A DNA stretch of 49,359 nt from a virus (Duplodnaviria; Heunggongvirae; Uroviricota; Caudoviricetes), in IMG/VR virus record IMGVR_UViG_2875722834_000005, positions 1 to 49,359 of that record; one strand, written 5' to 3'. Below the pieces are notes generated by a model. It did not search any database. It was not told the DNA's origin and saw only the letters and a program-made list of their open reading frames with translations. The position numbers and the translations under genes were made by a program. This document shows, one piece after another, positions 1 to 49,359 of the stretch. Position 1 is the stretch's first letter; every line of letters begins with the position of its first letter.

Positions 1-549
1 TCAGCTAGCTGGAAACTTTTTATACAGAGTTGAGAGCCCTACTCCATACGTTTTTGATACGCTTTGTCGTGATTCACCGGTTGCCATCCGCTCCCCCATT
101 TCCCGCCATTGCTCATCCGTGAACTTAGGCCTGCGACCACCAACTCGCCCTTTTGCCCTGGCTACGGCCAGCCCTGCTAAGGTACGTTCGCTATTAAGAT
201 CAGATTCATATTGTGCTGCGGAAAGGATGTTACGAAAGTTATAGCGGCCGCTGGCTGTTTTGAGATCCACGCCATCGGTAATACTGCGGAAGTTGATACC
301 CTTTTCCTGTAACTGCTGGAACATCAACAGCGCATGCAGAACGTTGCGGCCTATCCTGTCCAGCTTCCAGACCACCAGTTCATCCCCCGGCTGCATAGTG
401 GCGATCAGCCGTTTTAGAACCGGCCGATTCGATTTCCTCCCGCTGGCATGCTCTTCAAAAATTTTCTCACAACCCGCTGACTTGAGCGCCGTTAGTTGCA
501 ATTCAGTGTCCTGGTGGTTTGTTGATACTCGGGCATAACCGTAAATCAT
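1..549 (-). CDS. Serine-type DNA invertase (Hin/Gin/Pin family site-specific recombinase)
   Basis: 182-aa ORF; N-terminal resolvase motif GYARVSTNHQ with catalytic Ser, C-terminal HTH-like tail; size typical of Pin/Hin invertases. Confidence 0.8.
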   Translation of the reverse strand: MIYGYARVSTNHQDTELQLTALKSAGCEKIFEEHASGRKSNRPVLKRLIATMQPGDELVVWKLDRIGRNVLHALLMFQQLQEKGINFRSITDGVDLKTASGRYNFRNILSAAQYESDLNSERTLAGLAVARAKGRVGGRRPKFTDEQWREMGERMATGESRQSVSKTYGVGLSTLYKKFPAS

Positions 550-555
550 GAGTGC

Positions 556-583
556 TTCTCCTGTTGTAAAAACAGGAGAAGAG
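556..583 (-). promoter_or_regulatory. Inverted repeat (about 11-bp arms) overlapping the invertase ribosome-binding site
   Basis: TTCTCCTGTT..AACAGGAGAAG palindrome seen directly; 3' arm contains the AGGAGAA Shine-Dalgarno 7 nt upstream of the invertase ATG. Confidence 0.4.
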
Positions 584-740
584 GCGAAATATCACCTGAT
601 TCAGAAAAATATTTGAAAGGTTGGTTTGGGAGAAGCGGCAAAACGGGATGTGGGAACAGGGGAAAATCAGATACCGGATATGGCTTTTTTTGCCAGTGGT
701 GATGGATGGATGAAATTACCCAACGGTAAAATCCTGCAAT

Positions 741-977
741 ATGGTCGAGGTGCGGTTACGCCGCCGAGGTATCGATACAATTGTGTTATGTGGGATCTCG
801 ACCAATATCGGTGTTGAATCCACCGCCCGCAATGCCTGGGAACTTGGCTTTAATCTGGTGATTGCCGAAGACGCCTGTAGTGCCGCCAGCGCCGAGCAAC
901 ACAATAACAGCATTAATCATATCTACCCGCGCATCGCCCGTGTGCGTAGCGTGGAAGAGATCCTTCACGCGTTATGA
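741..977 (+). pseudogene. 3' fragment of isochorismatase-family hydrolase (YecD/YcaC-like), N-terminus missing
   Basis: Translation [18 protein letters not shown]...AEDAC matches the conserved C-terminal half of isochorismatase-family proteins; no in-frame N-terminal half upstream. Confidence 0.55.
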
Positions 978-1066
978 TTTACATCGGTCTGCCGCAATGG
1001 TCGCATCCTAAATGGGTGCGGTTGGGGATCACCAGCCTTGAAGAGTATGCCCGCCACTTTAACTGA
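974..1066 (+). pseudogene. 5' fragment (30 codons) of a DUF72/YecE-like gene truncated by a stop at the prophage junction
   Basis: ATG overlaps the upstream stop (ATGA); [19 protein letters not shown] resembles DUF72/YecE N-termini; reading frame ends abruptly at 1064-1066. Confidence 0.5.
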
Positions 1067-1185
1067 GTGACGCGGTAATTTTTAAAATCACTAAAGAACG
1101 CCCAAGAGCATGTGTTTTCTTTAGGTTAATCAGTGCATTATAAGACGCCTCCATATGAAATTCGGTTAAGTTCATATGAGTTAAA

Positions 1186-1267
1186 ATGTCCCAACCATGC
1201 CCCAAAACTGGCATTTATGCCCCATACATGCCCCAAAAACCTTCCTTAAAAAGCTACGTGCCCAACC
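1186..1267 (+). repeat. Cluster of short direct repeats (ATGCCCCA x3; GYCCCAACC x2) next to the prophage junction
   Basis: Repeats read directly at 1198-1209, 1218-1228, 1229-1241 and 1187-1196, 1258-1267. Confidence 0.35.
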
Positions 1268-1268
1268 G

Positions 1269-1297
1269 TTGACGCTATATAAATAAACAGTATAAAT
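1269..1297 (+). promoter_or_regulatory. Putative sigma70 promoter with degenerate LexA-like box upstream of dinI-like gene
   Basis: TTGACG (-35), TATAAAT (-10); spacer CTATATAAATAAACAG resembles the E. coli dinI SOS box but has CTAT instead of CTGT. Confidence 0.4.
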
Positions 1298-1330
1298 TGC
1301 GTGCAAAATCATTGTTGCTTTGGAGGCGGT

Positions 1331-1570
1331 ATGTTCGTTGAGTTGGTGTACGACAAACGGAATGTTGAAGGATTAACAGGTGCCAGAGAAATAATTCTGA
1401 ATGAGTTAACAAAGCGAGTGCACCGGATCTTTCCGGATGCAGAAGTGAAGGTTAAGCCGATGCAGGCGAACGGCTTAAACAGCGATGCCAGCAAGAGTGA
1501 TCAGGAAAAACTGAATCGCATGTTGGAAGATATGTTTGAAGAGGCCGATATGAGGCTGGCTGCGGGTTAA
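1331..1570 (+). CDS. dinI: DinI-like DNA damage-inducible protein
   Basis: 80-aa product resembles DinI in length and sequence pattern; GGAGG RBS 4 nt upstream of ATG. Confidence 0.8.
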   Translation: MFVELVYDKRNVEGLTGAREIILNELTKRVHRIFPDAEVKVKPMQANGLNSDASKSDQEKLNRMLEDMFEEADMRLAAG

Positions 1571-21775: not shown

Positions 21776-23697
21776 TATTCATCTCCAGATAATGCCCGCG
21801 CGTAATCCGCCAGGGTCTTGTTATTGTTACGGCTGCCTTCTTCCTCCAGCAGGCTGGCCAGAAGTGAATCAAGATTTAGCTGCCAGCGGGATATGCTTAT
21901 ACGCAGCGCCGCCAGTGCATAAACAAAGCAATCGAGCGCCTCATTTCGTCGTTTTTTGCTGTCCCATACGATCTTTTTCTTTCCGTCTACCCATTTTTCC
22001 ACCTGCTCTTCAGCTGTTAGTTGTTGGGCCTCTGTTAGATCGTAGATTTCTGGGTTATTCGGGAAATGAACCGCTCCCGCCAGCGGCTCGTCTCTTTGCG
22101 CCACCAGCGTGAAACGGTTATAAATCTGCTCTTTTGCGGTGTCTGTTCCTACCTCTGTGAGGTAAACACCATTCTTGTTACGCTTGCGTGGCATGTTCGC
22201 CACTGGCTTTCCATAAACCGACGCCCCCTTTATAGGGATCACACGAAACAGACCGTGTTTTTTTGAGCGGTTGTAGACGATGGTGGGATCAATGCCGCCA
22301 ATATCCCAGCAAGTGCGGGATATAACCATTTCGAGACCGTTCTGGCGCTTATACGTCCTGTTGATCGCTTCATCAACTCGAGCGAGAGTCGACTCATCAT
22401 CATGACGACCCATAATGATAATTTTGTCGATAAGCCAGCTTTCCTCTCCCGGCCCCCATCCCCAAACACGCATTTCGTAACGGTCAAGCTGGGAGTCAAT
22501 ACCCGCTGTCAGATATGCCACTCGCTCCGGCACAGACGCTTCAAAGTGCTCTTTTCGTTCCGCTAAAACTTCAGCATCGGGTCGTTCACCTATTTTCGGT
22601 TCCCACGTTTCGCCCAGGGTCGTGTTAACGAAAGTTTTTCGCTTACCCGTATCACCTTTTGTTTTTATCCAGTCCTTGACGATCTGCACCCAGGTTGTGA
22701 ACGGGCTATATGCGGTCCAGATGTGGAATGTAACGCTGTCAGGAGGTTCAATTTCGGTACCGGATGAAGAAAACCAGTTAAGGCCGTCTCGTGTCCAGAT
22801 ACCTGTTTCATCACAAATATACCTGGCCTCCAGAAATTCCAGCTCCTGTTGTTTAATCACACAGGCATTGTGTTCACAGAGGTAGTAAACGCTGGCAGGT
22901 TCTCCCGGAGACCATTTGAAGCCAAATGGTGTCTCTTTATCACCGAATTTCAGATACTGCTCTTCCCCACAGTGTGGGCATGGAACATGGAACCGAAGAA
23001 AATGTTCAGACTCCTTAGCAGCTCTTTCTATCTGGCACGTACCTTTGACTTTCGGTGTAGATCCGCGAATGGATTTCGGCCATACAGAACCCTCAATACG
23101 CTTATCACCCAGAAAGGTGGGAGAACCTTCTTTCTCGATGTCATCATCGAAAGCGGCGAGCTCGTCGTAGCCAGCCACATCAACTGATTTTTCACGGTAG
23201 TTTTTTGCAGCCTTACCGCCCAGGCACCAGAAACCACGACCATTCGAGAAACGCTTCATGCTCAGCGTATTGTCCCGGTGTTTTTTACCGTACCAGGGAG
23301 CAAGCGCCAGCAACGTCGGAATATCACGAATGGTCGGTTCTACATGAGACTTCATGAAGTTTTCAGCATCACCGTCGGTTGGTAACCATATTAGGGAGTT
23401 ACGCTGTTTATGTTGGATGAAATATGCGTAAACGCCGAGCAACATTTTTGAGTAGCCGACACGAGCCGATTTAACGACATTCACCTCGCGAATATAGTCA
23501 TTACCCATCGCATTCATAATTGCACGCTGAAATGGCAGTGTTTCCCAGCGCCCTTCCTGGTAGGCAGACTCTTTCGGGAGATAATAATTCTCATCTGCCC
23601 ATTCAACTGCTGTTTGCGGTTGCGGCCGGTACAGCGAACGTAACCCCGCCCGCGCAGAGTGCTGCAGCCCCTTAACCTGACTGTTCGATATATTCAC
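21775..23697 (-). CDS. A: Terminase large subunit A
   Basis: 640 aa, near-identical to lambda A N-terminal region. Confidence 0.95.
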
Positions 23698-24217
23698 TCA
23701 GCAACCCCGGTATCATTTCATCCAGCGCAGCTGCCTTGTTCATGGCCTTAATGATGTCCTTCTTGAGGAAATCAATATGTCGGTTCTCCAGCTCCGGGAA
23801 GCGCCGCTGAACCGACAGAGGTATTCCATCGAGAATGCTGGCGATTTCTCCGGCTACCCGCGACAGCACGAACGTGCAGAATGCGGTCTCCACCACTTCA
23901 GCGGACTCTTTTGCATTTTTTAATTCCTGAGCGTCAGCCTGAGCTCGCGTAAGTCGGTGTCGCTCATATTCAATCGTGCCAGGTTGAAGATCGGACTCAG
24001 AAGCGATACGGAGATCTTCAACTTCCTTCCGCAACTTTTCATTTTCTATAGCTGCATCGCGCGCACTGTACCATTCGATTGCAGCAGCAGATTCAAAGAG
24101 AACCTCATTACCTTTGCCACCACCGCGGACAACCGGCATACCTTGCTCCTGCCAGTTCTGAATCGTTCGGACGCTTACCCCGAAAATTTCGGATAAGCGT
24201 TTTTTATTAACCTCCAT
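23672..24217 (-). CDS. nu1: Terminase small subunit Nu1
   Basis: 181 aa, near-identical to lambda Nu1. Confidence 0.95.
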   Translation of the reverse strand: MEVNKKRLSEIFGVSVRTIQNWQEQGMPVVRGGGKGNEVLFESAAAIEWYSARDAAIENEKLRKEVEDLRIASESDLQPGTIEYERHRLTRAQADAQELKNAKESAEVVETAFCTFVLSRVAGEIASILDGIPLSVQRRFPELENRHIDFLKKDIIKAMNKAAALDEMIPGLLSEYIEQSG

Positions 24218-47687: not shown

Positions 47688-47930
47688 ATGCGACTGATCA
47701 ATCGAGGAAGTAAGCAATCACCTTTAGCTCGCCAAGCATGCGACATCGCGCTGGCAGCTCACTTGCAAACATATGGCGACTATGGGCGAAGCAAGATGAA
47801 AGAGACTTATACGGTGAAGGTTGAAGGCGTGAAAGTCTGGGTGGAGGTGGTGAACCGAAAGGCGAGCTACGTGGCCACAGCGATGACCGGCATGCGCCGT
47901 CTCCGCTCCCTGCCCGGGCAGGTTGGTTGA
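47688..47930 (+). CDS. Hypothetical protein (80 aa)
   Basis: ORF in operon context. Confidence 0.4.
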   Translation: MRLINRGSKQSPLARQACDIALAAHLQTYGDYGRSKMKETYTVKVEGVKVWVEVVNRKASYVATAMTGMRRLRSLPGQVG

Positions 47931-48169
47931 AAAAGATTTTGAATGGCCCGAACGGGCAACTGGAGAGAGCTATGGATGATATTTTGGTAACGTCAGACCT
48001 GACCAGTCGCTACAAAATTTCACGCAAAACCCTTTGGTCATGGCAAAGTGCAGACACAATGCCTCGGGGCTTCGTATGCCCGTTCCCACCCCCTGACTGG
48101 CCCGGCAACCCTAACCGCTGGCGCTCTGAGTCAATCAAAGAGTGGGAGGATAAAAAGAAGATAAATTAA
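47927..48169 (+). CDS. xis: AlpA-family excisionase / DNA-binding regulator
   Basis: [24 protein letters not shown]...G..RW motif pattern of AlpA/Xis proteins; converges on the integrase gene. Confidence 0.7.
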
Positions 48170-49359
48170 CTGAAGGGCTCTCCGATGATCTCTTCAAGAT
48201 GGCTCTGCCAAACGCGGAGCCAGTGTTTCTGATCATCGATATAGTCATGAAGGTTGTAATGCGCCATAACCCCCACCATCTGATGCCCGAGCAGCTTTTC
48301 AATTACGTGCGGCGGGCAACCTAACTCAGAGAGATTTGTGGCTATCGTCCGCCTCATATCATGAAGCGACCACTCTGCCATACCTGTTCCATTCCAAATA
48401 GAACGGGCGTAATTGGATGCCACAGGTGAATGAACGGGCGAATCTTTGATCCCGCCATCAATTTTACGTTGTGAAGTCACCAGGTGATTGGTGTTTATTT
48501 TCTTGAGGTGATTTCTGACCAAGTTAACGGCGGCGTCTGAGAGCCCCCTTCTAATATGTACCCGAGTTTTATAACTGCCCGCAGGCACGACCCACTCATT
48601 ATCATCCAATCGAAACCATGATCTCTCACTAAGTCGAATCTCAGCCGTACGGCATCCGGTAAGCATAATAAATTTCACCAGGAAAACGGACTCTATCGAC
48701 ATATGGCTTTTCAACCACTGATAGATTTTGCGCAGATCGTCATCGTCCATCCTGCGAGTTCTCTTTTTAGGCTTTTGCCCGACATCAGATGGCAGTAATC
48801 CCTCGAGTGGGTTTGAGGCGATCACACTTCTGTTAACGCAGAACCTAAACGCCCGTTTGCACAGCGAAAGCATGTAATGAGCCATCACCCTGCTTTCTAT
48901 AGAATCGAAGACGTTGATCCAGTGCATTTTCGCTGTGTTATCGACTTTGACATTCTTCATCGGTTCGGCGATATGTTTCTCAAACACCTGGCGATAGTAA
49001 TCGACTTTAACTAGCCCGTTAGCGATACAGTGCCTTTCAATCCAGTAATTGAACGCTTCGGCAACGGACATCGCTTCCTGTCGGGTCTGCTTATCCAGCT
49101 TCACCTGCTCTCGCGGATCCAGTCCCTCAGTTAACCAGTTTCTGAATTGTTGGCGACGCTCTCTTGCCTGGGTGATACTCATTGCAGGATAATCACCAAC
49201 ATTGAGTTTTACCGCTTTACCGGCCCAGCGATACCGATAGAAAAATGATATTTTTCCGGCCTGGCTGATTCTGGCGTTGAGCCCGTGCGAATCAGAAATA
49301 ATCTCGATATCATCTCTTTTCTTGCCGAGCGCCTTCCTGAGCTTTGTGTCGGTGATCAT
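48166..49359 (-). CDS. int: Tyrosine integrase (phage integrase family); ATG coincides with the window edge
   Basis: 397 aa; C-terminal catalytic region with R..HDMRRT..LGH..Y pattern. Confidence 0.9.

Follow-up and report, generated by a model that had tools for sequence, protein, structure and literature searches.

The segment from position 757 to about position 1268 of the window, as we call the whole 49,359-nucleotide stretch of viral DNA analysed here, is very likely a fossil attR of a yecE-integrating lambdoid phage, carried as cargo in a prophage of the phi80 family. Elements of this kind are already known, as yecE-derived att sequences have been described inside prophages (Nakamura et al. 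2021, PLoS Pathog, PMC8112680), and the window provides a new instance. The host DNA in this segment is bordered on its right by an integrase-made core junction and on its left by a microhomology joint with a tail-fibre gene of the Pin-segment type. Given that a phi80-type prophage here holds yecD–yecE DNA together with the att arm of a different phage of the Stx-phage type, the yecE edge is best read as the leftover of an older insertion. The features of the region and the integrase of the carrier prophage are listed in Table 1.

Table 1. Features of the captured attachment site and its surroundings in the window (strand as given; a dot marks features without strand)
Feature	Position	Strand	Basis
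pin-like serine DNA invertase (phi80 pinL homologue)	1..549	-	Pfam Resolvase (E=3.6e-39) and HTH_7
Putative invertase crossover site, gix/pix-like, ATATTTGAAAGG-TT-GGTTTGGGAGAA	609..634	.	Our own reading of the sequence
Tail-fibre (tail-collar) gene interior, about 48 codons, invertible-segment type, cut at 764	621..764	+	Homology to pro483
Novel joint between tail-fibre gene and yecD, 8-bp microhomology TTACGCCG	757..764	.	Three-way alignment
Host yecD (isochorismatase family), last 221 nt including stop codon	757..977	+	96–97% identity to K-12 yecD
Host yecE (DUF72), first 96 nt	974..1069	+	K-12 yecE alignment; phi80 PHI80_28 annotation
Crossover core of yecE-integrating phages	1059..1069	.	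TTAACTGAGTG here, 10/11 match to TTAACTGCGTG
Tail-side attachment arm (P-arm equivalent) of a yecE-integrating phage	1070..1268	.	About 98% identity to the LR536431 arm
Putative arm-type integrase-binding sites TGYCCCA, n=4 (1187, 1198, 1218, 1229)	1187..1235	+	Motif search, cross-phage comparison
SOS-type promoter with LexA box (1275-1290), then dinI-family gene (1331-1570)	1269..1570	+	Pfam DinI; promoter-like site at 1269-1298
Tyrosine integrase, phi80-type	48166..49359	-	99.0% nt identity to phi80 int region; Pfam Arm-DNA-bind_3 and Phage_integrase

Alignment against an uninterrupted yecD–yecE locus, a check proposed in the initial annotation, was run with the locus of E. coli K-12; it gave 96.3% identity over the 323 bp of window 747–1069 and placed the core at 1059–1069. 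The 3′ fragment of yecD announced in that annotation is real, with its true start at 757 rather than 741, the ATG at 741 that opened the earlier reader's open reading frame belonging to the tail-fibre gene fragment. In total, the host DNA in the window spans 313 bp (757–1069), comprises the yecD 3′ end and the first 96 nt of yecE, and is about 97% identical to K-12. The translation of 765–977 corresponds to the C-terminal part of the Pfam Isochorismatase family (positions 111–175 of 175, E=9e-20). The fragment of the yecE start was likewise recovered, with a small correction to its end at 1064–1066: homology to K-12 continues to 1069, where it runs out after ...AACTG(C>A)GTG, and the stop codon at 1064–1066 that closes the yecE frame arises from the C>A change at 1066. 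Among nine relic copies compared, this change was found in the window copy only, the position being C in phi80/XL10-gold, SZQ1, 22F46, HH107 and four IMG/VR contigs.

The right border of the host DNA has the form of a genuine integration junction. The 11-bp sequence TTAACTGCGTG is the core in attB, attL and attR of every functional yecE site examined; the phiP27 record annotates this 11-mer as both attL and attR, and it falls inside a 21-bp imperfect duplication annotated in Stx1_14040. The window holds one copy of the yecE core, and its junction lies at the position seen in the yecE prophages of LR536431, KL53, Stx1_14040 and phiP27; apart from one base it is indistinguishable from real yecE junctions. 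The true yecE prophage in LR536431 carries an arm that matches window 1050–1370 (core and arm) at about 98% identity, and a comparison of six arm variants revealed conserved columns, with a conserved block at about 1085–1110. The dinI-family gene that follows is cargo travelling with the arm. That yecE serves as an insertion site for Stx and other lambdoid phages, as stated in the initial annotation, is documented (PMC8112680; also the phiP27 record), and the true yecE attR of phiP27, the O145:H28 Stx1/Stx2 phages, LR536431 and KL53 share with the window the same yecE break, core and arm with TGYCCCA pairs. Unlike in the window, yecD in strains with true yecE prophages is intact and continuous with aspS, and the far end of the prophage holds an Arm-DNA-bind_2 integrase together with the yecE 3′ part.

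The prophage that encloses the entire window belongs to the phi80 family, both window ends being 97.6–99% identical to phage phi80. Window 1–1559 aligns to phi80 24499–22941, where pinL is annotated, at 97.6% identity, and window 47694–49359 aligns to phi80 26485–24823, which holds int and xis, at 99.0%. The right end thus carries a phi80-type integrase/excisionase module, the integrase start codon coinciding with the right window end and the invertase stop codon with the left. About 55% of the window finds no alignment to phi80, and the window is therefore a mosaic relative of that phage. Its integrase has no meaningful similarity to the yecE-type integrases and a different arm-binding domain (PF13356 versus PF12167), and a tblastn search found no yecE-type integrase gene anywhere in the window. 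Since no cognate integrase is present, the relic is inert as far as integration and excision of the prophage itself are concerned; the core of the window's copy moreover carries a point mutation.

Given that the window lies wholly inside a phi80-family prophage, the yecE junction is not the boundary of that prophage. The host/prophage junction proposed in the initial annotation accordingly stands as an integrase-type yecE junction and falls as the end of this element. Were the prophage instead integrated in yecE, position 1059–1069 would be its live attR-type boundary, and a matching junction together with the yecE 3′ part would lie beyond the integrase. The one-base difference from real yecE junctions speaks for such a reading, as does the fact that the window's own flanks are out of view. 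We nevertheless consider it highly improbable. To the left of the yecD fragment lies phage DNA (the tail-fibre fragment and pin) rather than aspS and the 5′ part of yecD, the window lacks a yecE-type integrase, and the relic block belongs to the genome records of phi80 and mEp237. Furthermore, the yecE 3′ part and matching core that the initial annotation proposed to look for beyond the integrase are replaced in relatives by kch and the 17-bp att80 core: the phi80-type integrase adjoins kch in SZQ1, AR_0119 and 22F46, and the att80 core, ATTTAAGAAAGTGTTCT, is found at the yciI 3′ end and before kch in near-identical lysogens. We observed this core at the left junction of SZQ1, the right junction of AR_0119, phi80 attP and K-12 attB. 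All four relic-bearing relatives examined are flanked by yciI or kch, neighbours in K-12, and not by aspS or yecN; for SZQ1 and 22F46 this holds on either side, for XL10-gold and HH107 on the left, the one side seen. The window itself contains no yciI or kch DNA, no yecE 3′ part and no second yecE core. From relatives that are 97.6–100% identical at both ends, we infer that the prophage of the window sits at yciI. A boundary drawn at the yecE break would accordingly be off by one att site, the true prophage ends very probably being the att80 sites in yciI.

A large chromosomal inversion between a yciI prophage and a yecE prophage, or a mis-assembly, could also join phi80-type DNA to a yecE junction, in which case the block would not be cargo of a mobile phage genome. 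Some 640 kb separate the yciI and yecE loci, with the terminus between them, inversions between prophages are common in the terminus region (PMC8112680, discussion), and the yecE prophage of KL53 is split into two halves separated by 685 kb. What speaks against an inversion, which was rejected for this reason, is that the element lies between yciI and kch in both SZQ1 and 22F46. In addition, the block with an identical joint recurs in two phage records, four IMG/VR viral contigs and nine independent complete genomes, and these nine carriers hold additional yecD matches elsewhere. The chance that either event produced the arrangement is therefore, in our view, extremely small.

At the left border, the yecD fragment is cut next to an invertase gene, as had been noted initially, and the second rearrangement suspected on this side is the joint between the tail-fibre gene and yecD. 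Window 621–763 is 94% identical in nucleotide sequence to the tail-fibre gene of phage pro483, and alignment of the window with pro483 and K-12 yecD revealed that tail-fibre identity reaches 764 and yecD identity starts from 757; a table of single-nucleotide differences gives the same switch point. To judge from these alignments, the host DNA would have been captured by illegitimate recombination at the TTACGCCG joint. The homology to the intact pro483 gene starts at 621, which is the central TT of the crossover-like site. A Pin/Gin/Hin-type switch is present only in incomplete form, as an invertase, one crossover-like site and a tail-fibre fragment of about 48 codons; no second crossover site was found in the window in a search allowing up to 3 mismatches, and the invertible switch would therefore be defunct. 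A Pin-catalysed origin of the left joint was rejected: the joint lies about 135 bp inside the tail-fibre gene, off the crossover site.

The two borders enable us to propose a putative route of capture. The stretch of 313 bp from the core (ending at 1069) back to the TTACGCCG joint bears the signature of specialised transduction. An ancestor phage would have lysogenised yecE, and illegitimate recombination would then have fixed its attR together with 313 bp of chromosome inside a phage genome. This could have happened either through aberrant excision of the lambda gal/bio type or through a tandem duplication mediated by microhomology, after which the outer attR served for excision; the lineage that bears the relic would since have come to carry the phi80 int-att module. 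The model is reminiscent, by analogy, of the lambda gal/bio transducing phages, in which att-adjacent host DNA is captured via an illegitimate joint. Unlike in those phages, the captured att is here no longer a working att. The prophage in LR536431, which among the true yecE prophages has the most similar arm, shows the same gene order next to dinI as the window; it was rejected as the direct ancestor, its pin being just 51% identical and its tail-fibre end unrelated.

Within the arm, the initial annotation had pointed to direct repeats with the spacing of arm-type integrase sites. The threefold repeat holds, with ATGCCCCA at 1197, 1217 and 1228 and the variant ATGTCCCA at 1186; the proposed pair of GYCCCAACC copies is weaker, as it consists of GTCCCAACC at 1188 versus T-GCCCAACC at 1258–1266, so that CCCAACC alone is common to both. 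The repeats are better described as two tandem pairs, TGYCCCA-N4-TGYCCCA, with 11-bp spacing (1187–1204 and 1218–1235) and pair starts 31 bp apart. Comparison of divergent yecE phages revealed the same tandem pairs in both of their arms, which bears out the arm-type likeness. On the tail side, a tandem pair lies 114–118 bp after the core in five arm variants, and TGYCCCA copies overall lie 114–177 bp after it. On the integrase side, a pair lies about 65–82 bp before the core, within the int 3′ end, in LR536431, Stx1_14040 and phiP27. The copies share one orientation in both arms. Furthermore, the yecE integrase of LR536431 has an N-terminal Arm-DNA-bind_2 domain (PF12167, E=1.5e-24). In view of this recurrence in the two arms of several divergent yecE phages, the TGYCCCA repeats very probably are, on comparative grounds, the arm-type sites of the yecE-class integrase with its Arm-DNA-bind_2 N-domain. 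In lambda attP and attR, the core is flanked by arms with the arm-type Int sites P1, P2 and P'1-3. The layout proposed for the yecE class would resemble that of lambda, with int-proximal arm-type sites about 60–85 bp from the core and distal sites more than 110 bp away, but with another family of integrase N-domain (PF12167) and another putative site sequence.

Alternatively, the repeats might be bound by a different protein, for instance an excisionase, a host factor or a factor controlling the dinI promoter, or be a chance repeat. In the window only about 35 bp separate them from the -35 hexamer of dinI downstream, and the count of the single motif is ordinary (4 seen versus 2.07 expected). 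Yet the repeats are kept in KL53 and phiP27, in which a gene other than dinI follows. Sites for an excisionase as a rule occupy a single att arm, whereas the repeats occur also in the int-side arm of three phages as 11-bp tandem pairs of the same orientation. In the first pair the motif columns show no variation although the surrounding arm has diverged (65% mean column identity across six arm variants), and the repeats are decayed in the older PPompW relic. The tandem-pair pattern is seen twice in the window against a chance expectation of 0.00 (100 shuffles), and ATGYCCCAW has four matches on both strands of the 49-kb window, all inside 1186–1236, counts that are partly circular because the pattern was derived from this same cluster. 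The cognate yecE-class integrases, besides, possess an arm-binding N-domain. Taken with the recurrence in both arms, these observations make a different role, or none, improbable, and the assignment to arm-type sites is retained.

The same block is present in classic phi80. In phi80 (Lula; JX871397, about 23200–23950), dinL, PHI80_28, PHI80_29 and pinL follow in the same order. Both phi80 and mEp237 are 98.3–98.6% identical to window 550–1559 and share the joint, the core position, the arm repeats and dinI; phi80 also shares the int-att80 module found at the opposite window end. The window differs from phi80 by the C>A in the core, which makes a TGA, and by a G>A in the LexA box of dinI. PHI80_28 is annotated as an 'N-terminal fragment DUF72 pseudogene' and PHI80_29 as an 'internal fragment, phage tail collar domain protein (pseudogene)'; the record carries no annotation of the yecD fragment, the core of a yecE phage or the arm repeats. 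A full-text literature search for phi80 with yecE or DUF72, a scope outside which the phi80 genome paper fell, returned nothing relevant. In the classic phi80/Lula and mEp237 lineage, an attR has accordingly been kept complete and with hardly any decay, along with 313 bp of chromosome, and the integrase class of this attR is the one used by many Stx phages.

The closest described counterpart is attB-in-PP_1 of PPompW and related prophages (PMC8112680), which resembles the relic in being a yecE-derived att with yecE homology inside a prophage integrated elsewhere. Window 1051–1071, CCGCCACTTTAACTGAGTGAC, has 2 mismatches to the published 21-mer, and the phi80 copy has 1. The PPompW copy, too, runs into a decayed tail-side arm, 71.8% identical to window 1040–1239. 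However, PPompW retains about 100 bp of yecE at 87% identity, as against 313 bp of yecD and yecE at 97% identity to K-12 in the window, where the arm repeats are intact and the capture joint is readable. The carriers given in that study do not include those at yciI or phi80, and it left the mechanism of att capture open. With both capture borders readable, the relic offers a clear worked example of how a chromosomal att enters phage genomes, a step beyond the reach of that prophage-in-prophage study. It also supports a comparative definition of the probable arm-type sites of the yecE class, namely TGYCCCA in 11-bp-spaced pairs in both arms.

The yecD′–yecE′ relic is rare among complete E. coli genomes. 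The joint between tail-fibre gene and yecD occurs in 9 of 5426 complete E. coli genomes and is 99.3–100% identical over 141 bp in all nine; each of these records has at least one further yecD match elsewhere, so the relic fragment is an extra copy of yecD. Carriers whose span could be measured extend over 13–42.5 kb, the size of a single prophage or a remnant. No fewer than three distinct arm and tail-fibre modules are now joined to the single, monophyletic capture joint. Each module has its own, different counterpart among the true yecE prophages, and the switch between them falls within -68 to +11 of the core.

This pattern would be explained if the relic were a portable secondary att site and exchange point for yecE-class phages in phi80-type lysogens, a possibility that we put forward tentatively and regard as rather less likely than not to hold. 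A phage of the yecE class, which includes Stx1 and Stx2 phages, would enter the core of the relic to give a prophage inside a prophage, and homologous resolution within the tail genes common to both would exchange the arm, dinI and the tail-fibre module. The PPompW site has been shown to receive Stx2 phages (PMC8112680). In contrast, no phage integrated in the phi80-type relic was found in the 5426 complete E. coli genomes with one type of int-side arm as query (a synthetic attP-like sequence of the LR536431 int-side arm, the core and the window arm; best coverage at most 53%), a weak negative because carriers are so few. Nor were intermediates, such as a duplicated arm-dinI-pin unit, found in IMG/VR (4 matches, all known variants) or in species-representative genomes (0 matches). 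If the secondary-site reading were true, it would give a concrete answer to how att sites enter phage genomes; and if the relic were proficient in recombination, phi80-type lysogens would offer a second landing site for Stx phages and a route for the exchange of tail-fibre modules.

Sequence analysis of the arm and its cargo revealed two further details. The tail-side arm contains a palindrome with 11-nt arms at 1152–1178, the arms of which co-vary in phiP27 and PPompW (CATACG...CGTATG versus CATATG...CATATG). At the dinI promoter position, where the phi80 record annotates a LexA site, the left half-site reads CTAT instead of CTGT in both the window and SZQ1.

Alignment of the window to the uninterrupted yecD–yecE locus of E. 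coli K-12 gave 96.3% identity over positions 747–1069 and no other match in the window, bearing out the initial annotation of yecD and yecE fragments with an abrupt break. The homology to yecE ends after ...TTAACTG(C>A)GTG at 1069, and the TGA at 1064–1066 that closes the reading frame stems from the C>A change at 1066, which was seen in no other copy examined of this relic (757 to about 1268; host DNA, core and tail-side arm). The break point in yecE is identical in the prophages truly seated in this gene (LR536431, KL53, Stx1_14040 and phiP27). In LR536431, aspS–yecD is intact, yecE ends at the same base as in the window, and the arm is about 98% identical to that of the window up to dinI; the other end of this prophage carries xis, a 437-aa integrase, the rest of yecE and then yecN. 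KL53, the Stx1a phage Stx1_14040 and phiP27 share the same core, with different arms. The 11-mer TTAACTGCGTG is annotated as both attL and attR in the phiP27 record, lies within the 21-bp imperfect duplication annotated in the Stx1_14040 record, and is also present in the K-12 attB. The break at 1069 is, by these alignments, a genuine yecE–phage junction. In KL53 (NZ_CP030919.1), the tail-side and int-side junctions of the yecE prophage lie at ~1,110,559 and ~1,795,153, 685 kb apart, suggesting a large inversion with one end within the prophage.

Features at the left end of the window and the right-end integrase
Feature	Position (nt)	Strand	Remarks
Serine DNA invertase gene	1–549	minus	Resolvase + HTH_7
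Single invertase crossover-like site	609–634		read from sequence
Tail-fibre (tail-collar) gene, ~48 codons	621–764		invertible-segment kind; 94% to phage pro483 tail-fibre gene
yecD, last 221 nt	757–977
yecE, first 96 nt	974–1069
Non-coding phage DNA, ~200 bp	directly after yecE fragment		contains the repeats
Palindrome	1152–1178		CATATGAAATT/AAGTTCATATG, in fossil arm
TGYCCCA tandem pairs	1187–1204, 1218–1235
SOS-type promoter, then dinI-family gene	1331–1570 (gene)
Tail-fibre and tail genes	beyond dinI	minus
Integrase gene	48166–49359	minus	Arm-DNA-bind_3 N-domain

The prophage carrying this junction evidently uses another site. Its integrase differs in the N-domain from the yecE integrases, which possess Arm-DNA-bind_2, and shows no meaningful similarity to them. 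This integrase type is present in 176 complete E. coli genomes; kch adjoins it in all three genomes examined at this end (SZQ1, AR_0119 and 22F46), and yciI adjoins the left-end invertase in SZQ1, XL10-gold, 22F46 and HH107. In K-12, yciI and kch are neighbours. Both real junctions are marked by the 17-bp direct repeat ATTTAAGAAAGTGTTCT, the same sequence as the annotated attP core of phage φ80. Furthermore, positions 1–1559 and 47694–49359 of the window are 97.6% and 99.0% identical to φ80 24499–22941 and 26485–24823, respectively. The φ80 alignment covers only 22.3 kb of the 49.4-kb window (~45%), making the window a mosaic relative of φ80 rather than φ80 itself. Similarity to φ80 is high in the head genes and at both ends; the differences fall in much of the early region and in the tail tip/host-range region.

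The yecD'–yecE' block lies within the φ80 and mEp237 phage genome records at 98.3%–98.6% identity; in the φ80 annotation, two pseudogenes, one a DUF72 N-terminal fragment (PHI80_28) and the other a tail-collar fragment (PHI80_29), lie between dinL and pinL, so that the block is partly annotated there. The window runs from the invertase stop codon to the integrase start codon, indicating that it lies wholly inside the prophage, and no yecE 3' part, second core, yciI/kch DNA or yecE-type integrase is found within it. Given the φ80-type integrase, the yciI/kch flanks of relatives and the block in the φ80 record, the proposal that the window's own prophage meets its host in yecE had to be abandoned; in relatives, kch rather than the rest of yecE lies beyond the integrase. 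The junction at 1069 is thus not that of the prophage carrying it. Overall, the initial observation is confirmed and its interpretation is partly supported. Some carriers, such as 22F46 (its locus L018, 832–14170), are ~13–15 kb remnants with pin, the relic and a φ80-type int, the interval being filled by unrelated genes (TolB-family, acyltransferase and baseplate genes).

The left edge of the host DNA agrees with this. When the window, an intact tail-fibre gene and K-12 yecD were aligned together, identity to the tail-fibre gene ran as far as 764 and identity to yecD began at 757, the overlap being the 8-bp microhomology TTACGCCG, in agreement with the SNP table. This edge is typical of illegitimate, microhomology-mediated joining. 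The joint occurs in only 9 of 5426 complete E. coli genomes, among them those of the laboratory strains XL10-gold and JCL301, with 99.3%–100% identity over the 141-bp query, and every carrier genome contains one or more additional yecD matches elsewhere, indicating that the yecD fragment is an extra copy of single origin, now carried by the phage. In XL10-gold, the element lies between yciI and tail genes and is 98.3% identical to φ80 over window 550–1559. The Pin-type invertase of the window is intact (182 aa); as one crossover-like site remains in the window, it is apparently an orphan with nothing left to invert.

In LR536431 and similar true yecE prophages, dinI, the pin gene and the invertible tail-fibre segment lie directly beside the arm, which argues that all components of the block were once tail-end neighbours. 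We propose that an ancestral lambdoid phage lysogenised yecE, and that recombination at the 8-bp yecD/tail-fibre microhomology would have brought attR, together with 313 bp of chromosomal DNA, into the phage genome. The present order (pin, crossover site and tail-fibre fragment, joined to yecD', yecE', core, arm and dinI) could have arisen by aberrant excision of the lambda gal/bio type, or by tandem duplication between two TTACGCCG copies, with normal excision at the outer attR as a second step. No intermediate form of the capture was found in IMG/VR and species-representative genomes, and identity between the pin genes of LR536431 and the window is only 51%, so the path of capture is an inference.

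Arm-type sites and the capture of host DNA beside att are textbook lambda biology. The four repeat copies form two tandem pairs, TGYCCCA-N4-TGYCCCA, a pattern with zero chance expectation in the window. Comparison across arms is more telling than these counts. Five tail-side arms (the window/LR536431 type, KL53, phiP27, Stx1_14040 and 22F46) carry an 11-bp-spaced pair 114–118 bp beyond the core, and a second pair is present in the window/LR536431 type, KL53 and phiP27, shifted by 10 bp in the last. Column identity averages 65% over the arms, but the motif columns do not vary. In the int-side arm of LR536431, Stx1_14040 and phiP27, a pair in the same orientation lies ~65–82 bp before the core, inside the 3' end of int. 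The repeat copies of the older relic in prophage PPompW have decayed to CGTCCCA, TGCCCTA and CGTTCCA. Because the repeats occur in both arms and are conserved across divergent phages sharing an integrase class with an arm-binding N-domain, they are very probably arm-type integrase sites; this suggestion of the initial annotation stands as the best reading, except that the cognate integrase is absent from the window. Half-sites of the palindrome co-vary (CATATG...CATATG versus CATACG...CGTATG in phiP27 and PPompW), suggesting that it may bind a dimeric or accessory protein. In relatives, outside the window, two copies of GGTACACA and one of GTACACA lie immediately upstream of the φ80-type int (locus L006, 5766–5805), with one GTACACA in the opposite arm next to pin (locus L002, ~5413); these appear to be the φ80 integrase's own candidate arm-type repeats, unrelated to TGYCCCA.

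The relic should be inert for integration and excision of its carrier prophage. Objects of this class, in which a prophage contains a yecE att sequence, have been published: in PPompW and other prophages, a 21-bp att derived from yecE and accompanied by ~79 bp of additional yecE homology ('attB-in-PP_1') is a target for Stx2 phage integration, and how such sequences enter phage genomes was left open (Nakamura et al. 2021, PMC8112680). Alignment of the PPompW copy with the window extends from the yecE fragment across the arm at 71.8%, so the two are objects of one kind, that in PPompW being more decayed; the relic of the φ80 type is better preserved, with the capture joint still readable. The φ80 genome paper aside, we found in the accessible literature no prior account of the φ80 pseudogene cluster as a complete attR of the yecE/Stx-phage integrase class with a yecD fragment, of the microhomology joint, or of a comparative definition of the TGYCCCA sites. 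With one int-arm type as query, no phage integrated in the relic was found among 5426 complete E. coli genomes, and carriers with measurable span range from 13 to 42.5 kb, the size of one prophage or of a remnant.

Among φ80-site prophages, the monophyletic left part of the block is combined with no fewer than three distinct arms: the LR536431 arm in the window, SZQ1 and φ80, the KL53 arm in HH107 and QL57EC, and a Stx1_14040-like arm in 22F46. φ80-type SNPs persist in the host segment of HH107 and 22F46 as far as −68 from the core, and the switch of arm is seen at +11, so exchange at or near the core has happened at least twice. This pattern is compatible with site-specific recombination at the relic and subsequent homologous resolution, and also with ordinary homologous recombination falling by chance in the last 79 bp; the latter would place both crossovers there with a probability of roughly 6% (estimated for uniform crossover positions), a figure suggestive rather than decisive. 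The window relic has a mismatch inside its 11-bp core, which would be expected to impair its use as an integration or exchange site. The arms of φ80-site HH107 (locus L019, 1718–3841) and of the true yecE prophage KL53 (locus L001, 2804–4927) are identical over the 250 bp compared, and the same three proteins (WP_081178096, WP_081178098 and WP_167737001) follow the yecE core in both; this likeness indicates that phages at the two chromosomal sites have swapped a tail-fibre module.

Beside the relic, the LexA box of the dinI promoter (1275–1290) reads CTATATAAATAAACAG in the window and SZQ1, and CTGTATAAATAAACAG in φ80/XL10-gold and LR536431; this G>A change in a consensus half-site may de-repress dinI. 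Farther along (2390–2760), a perfect LexA box, CTGTATATATATACAG, at 2740–2755 precedes an umuD-like S24 peptidase gene on the minus strand, which is split into two overlapping ORFs (2536–2718 and 2390–2599) and is therefore probably frameshifted. At this locus in SZQ1, only a short 'S24 family peptidase' is annotated.
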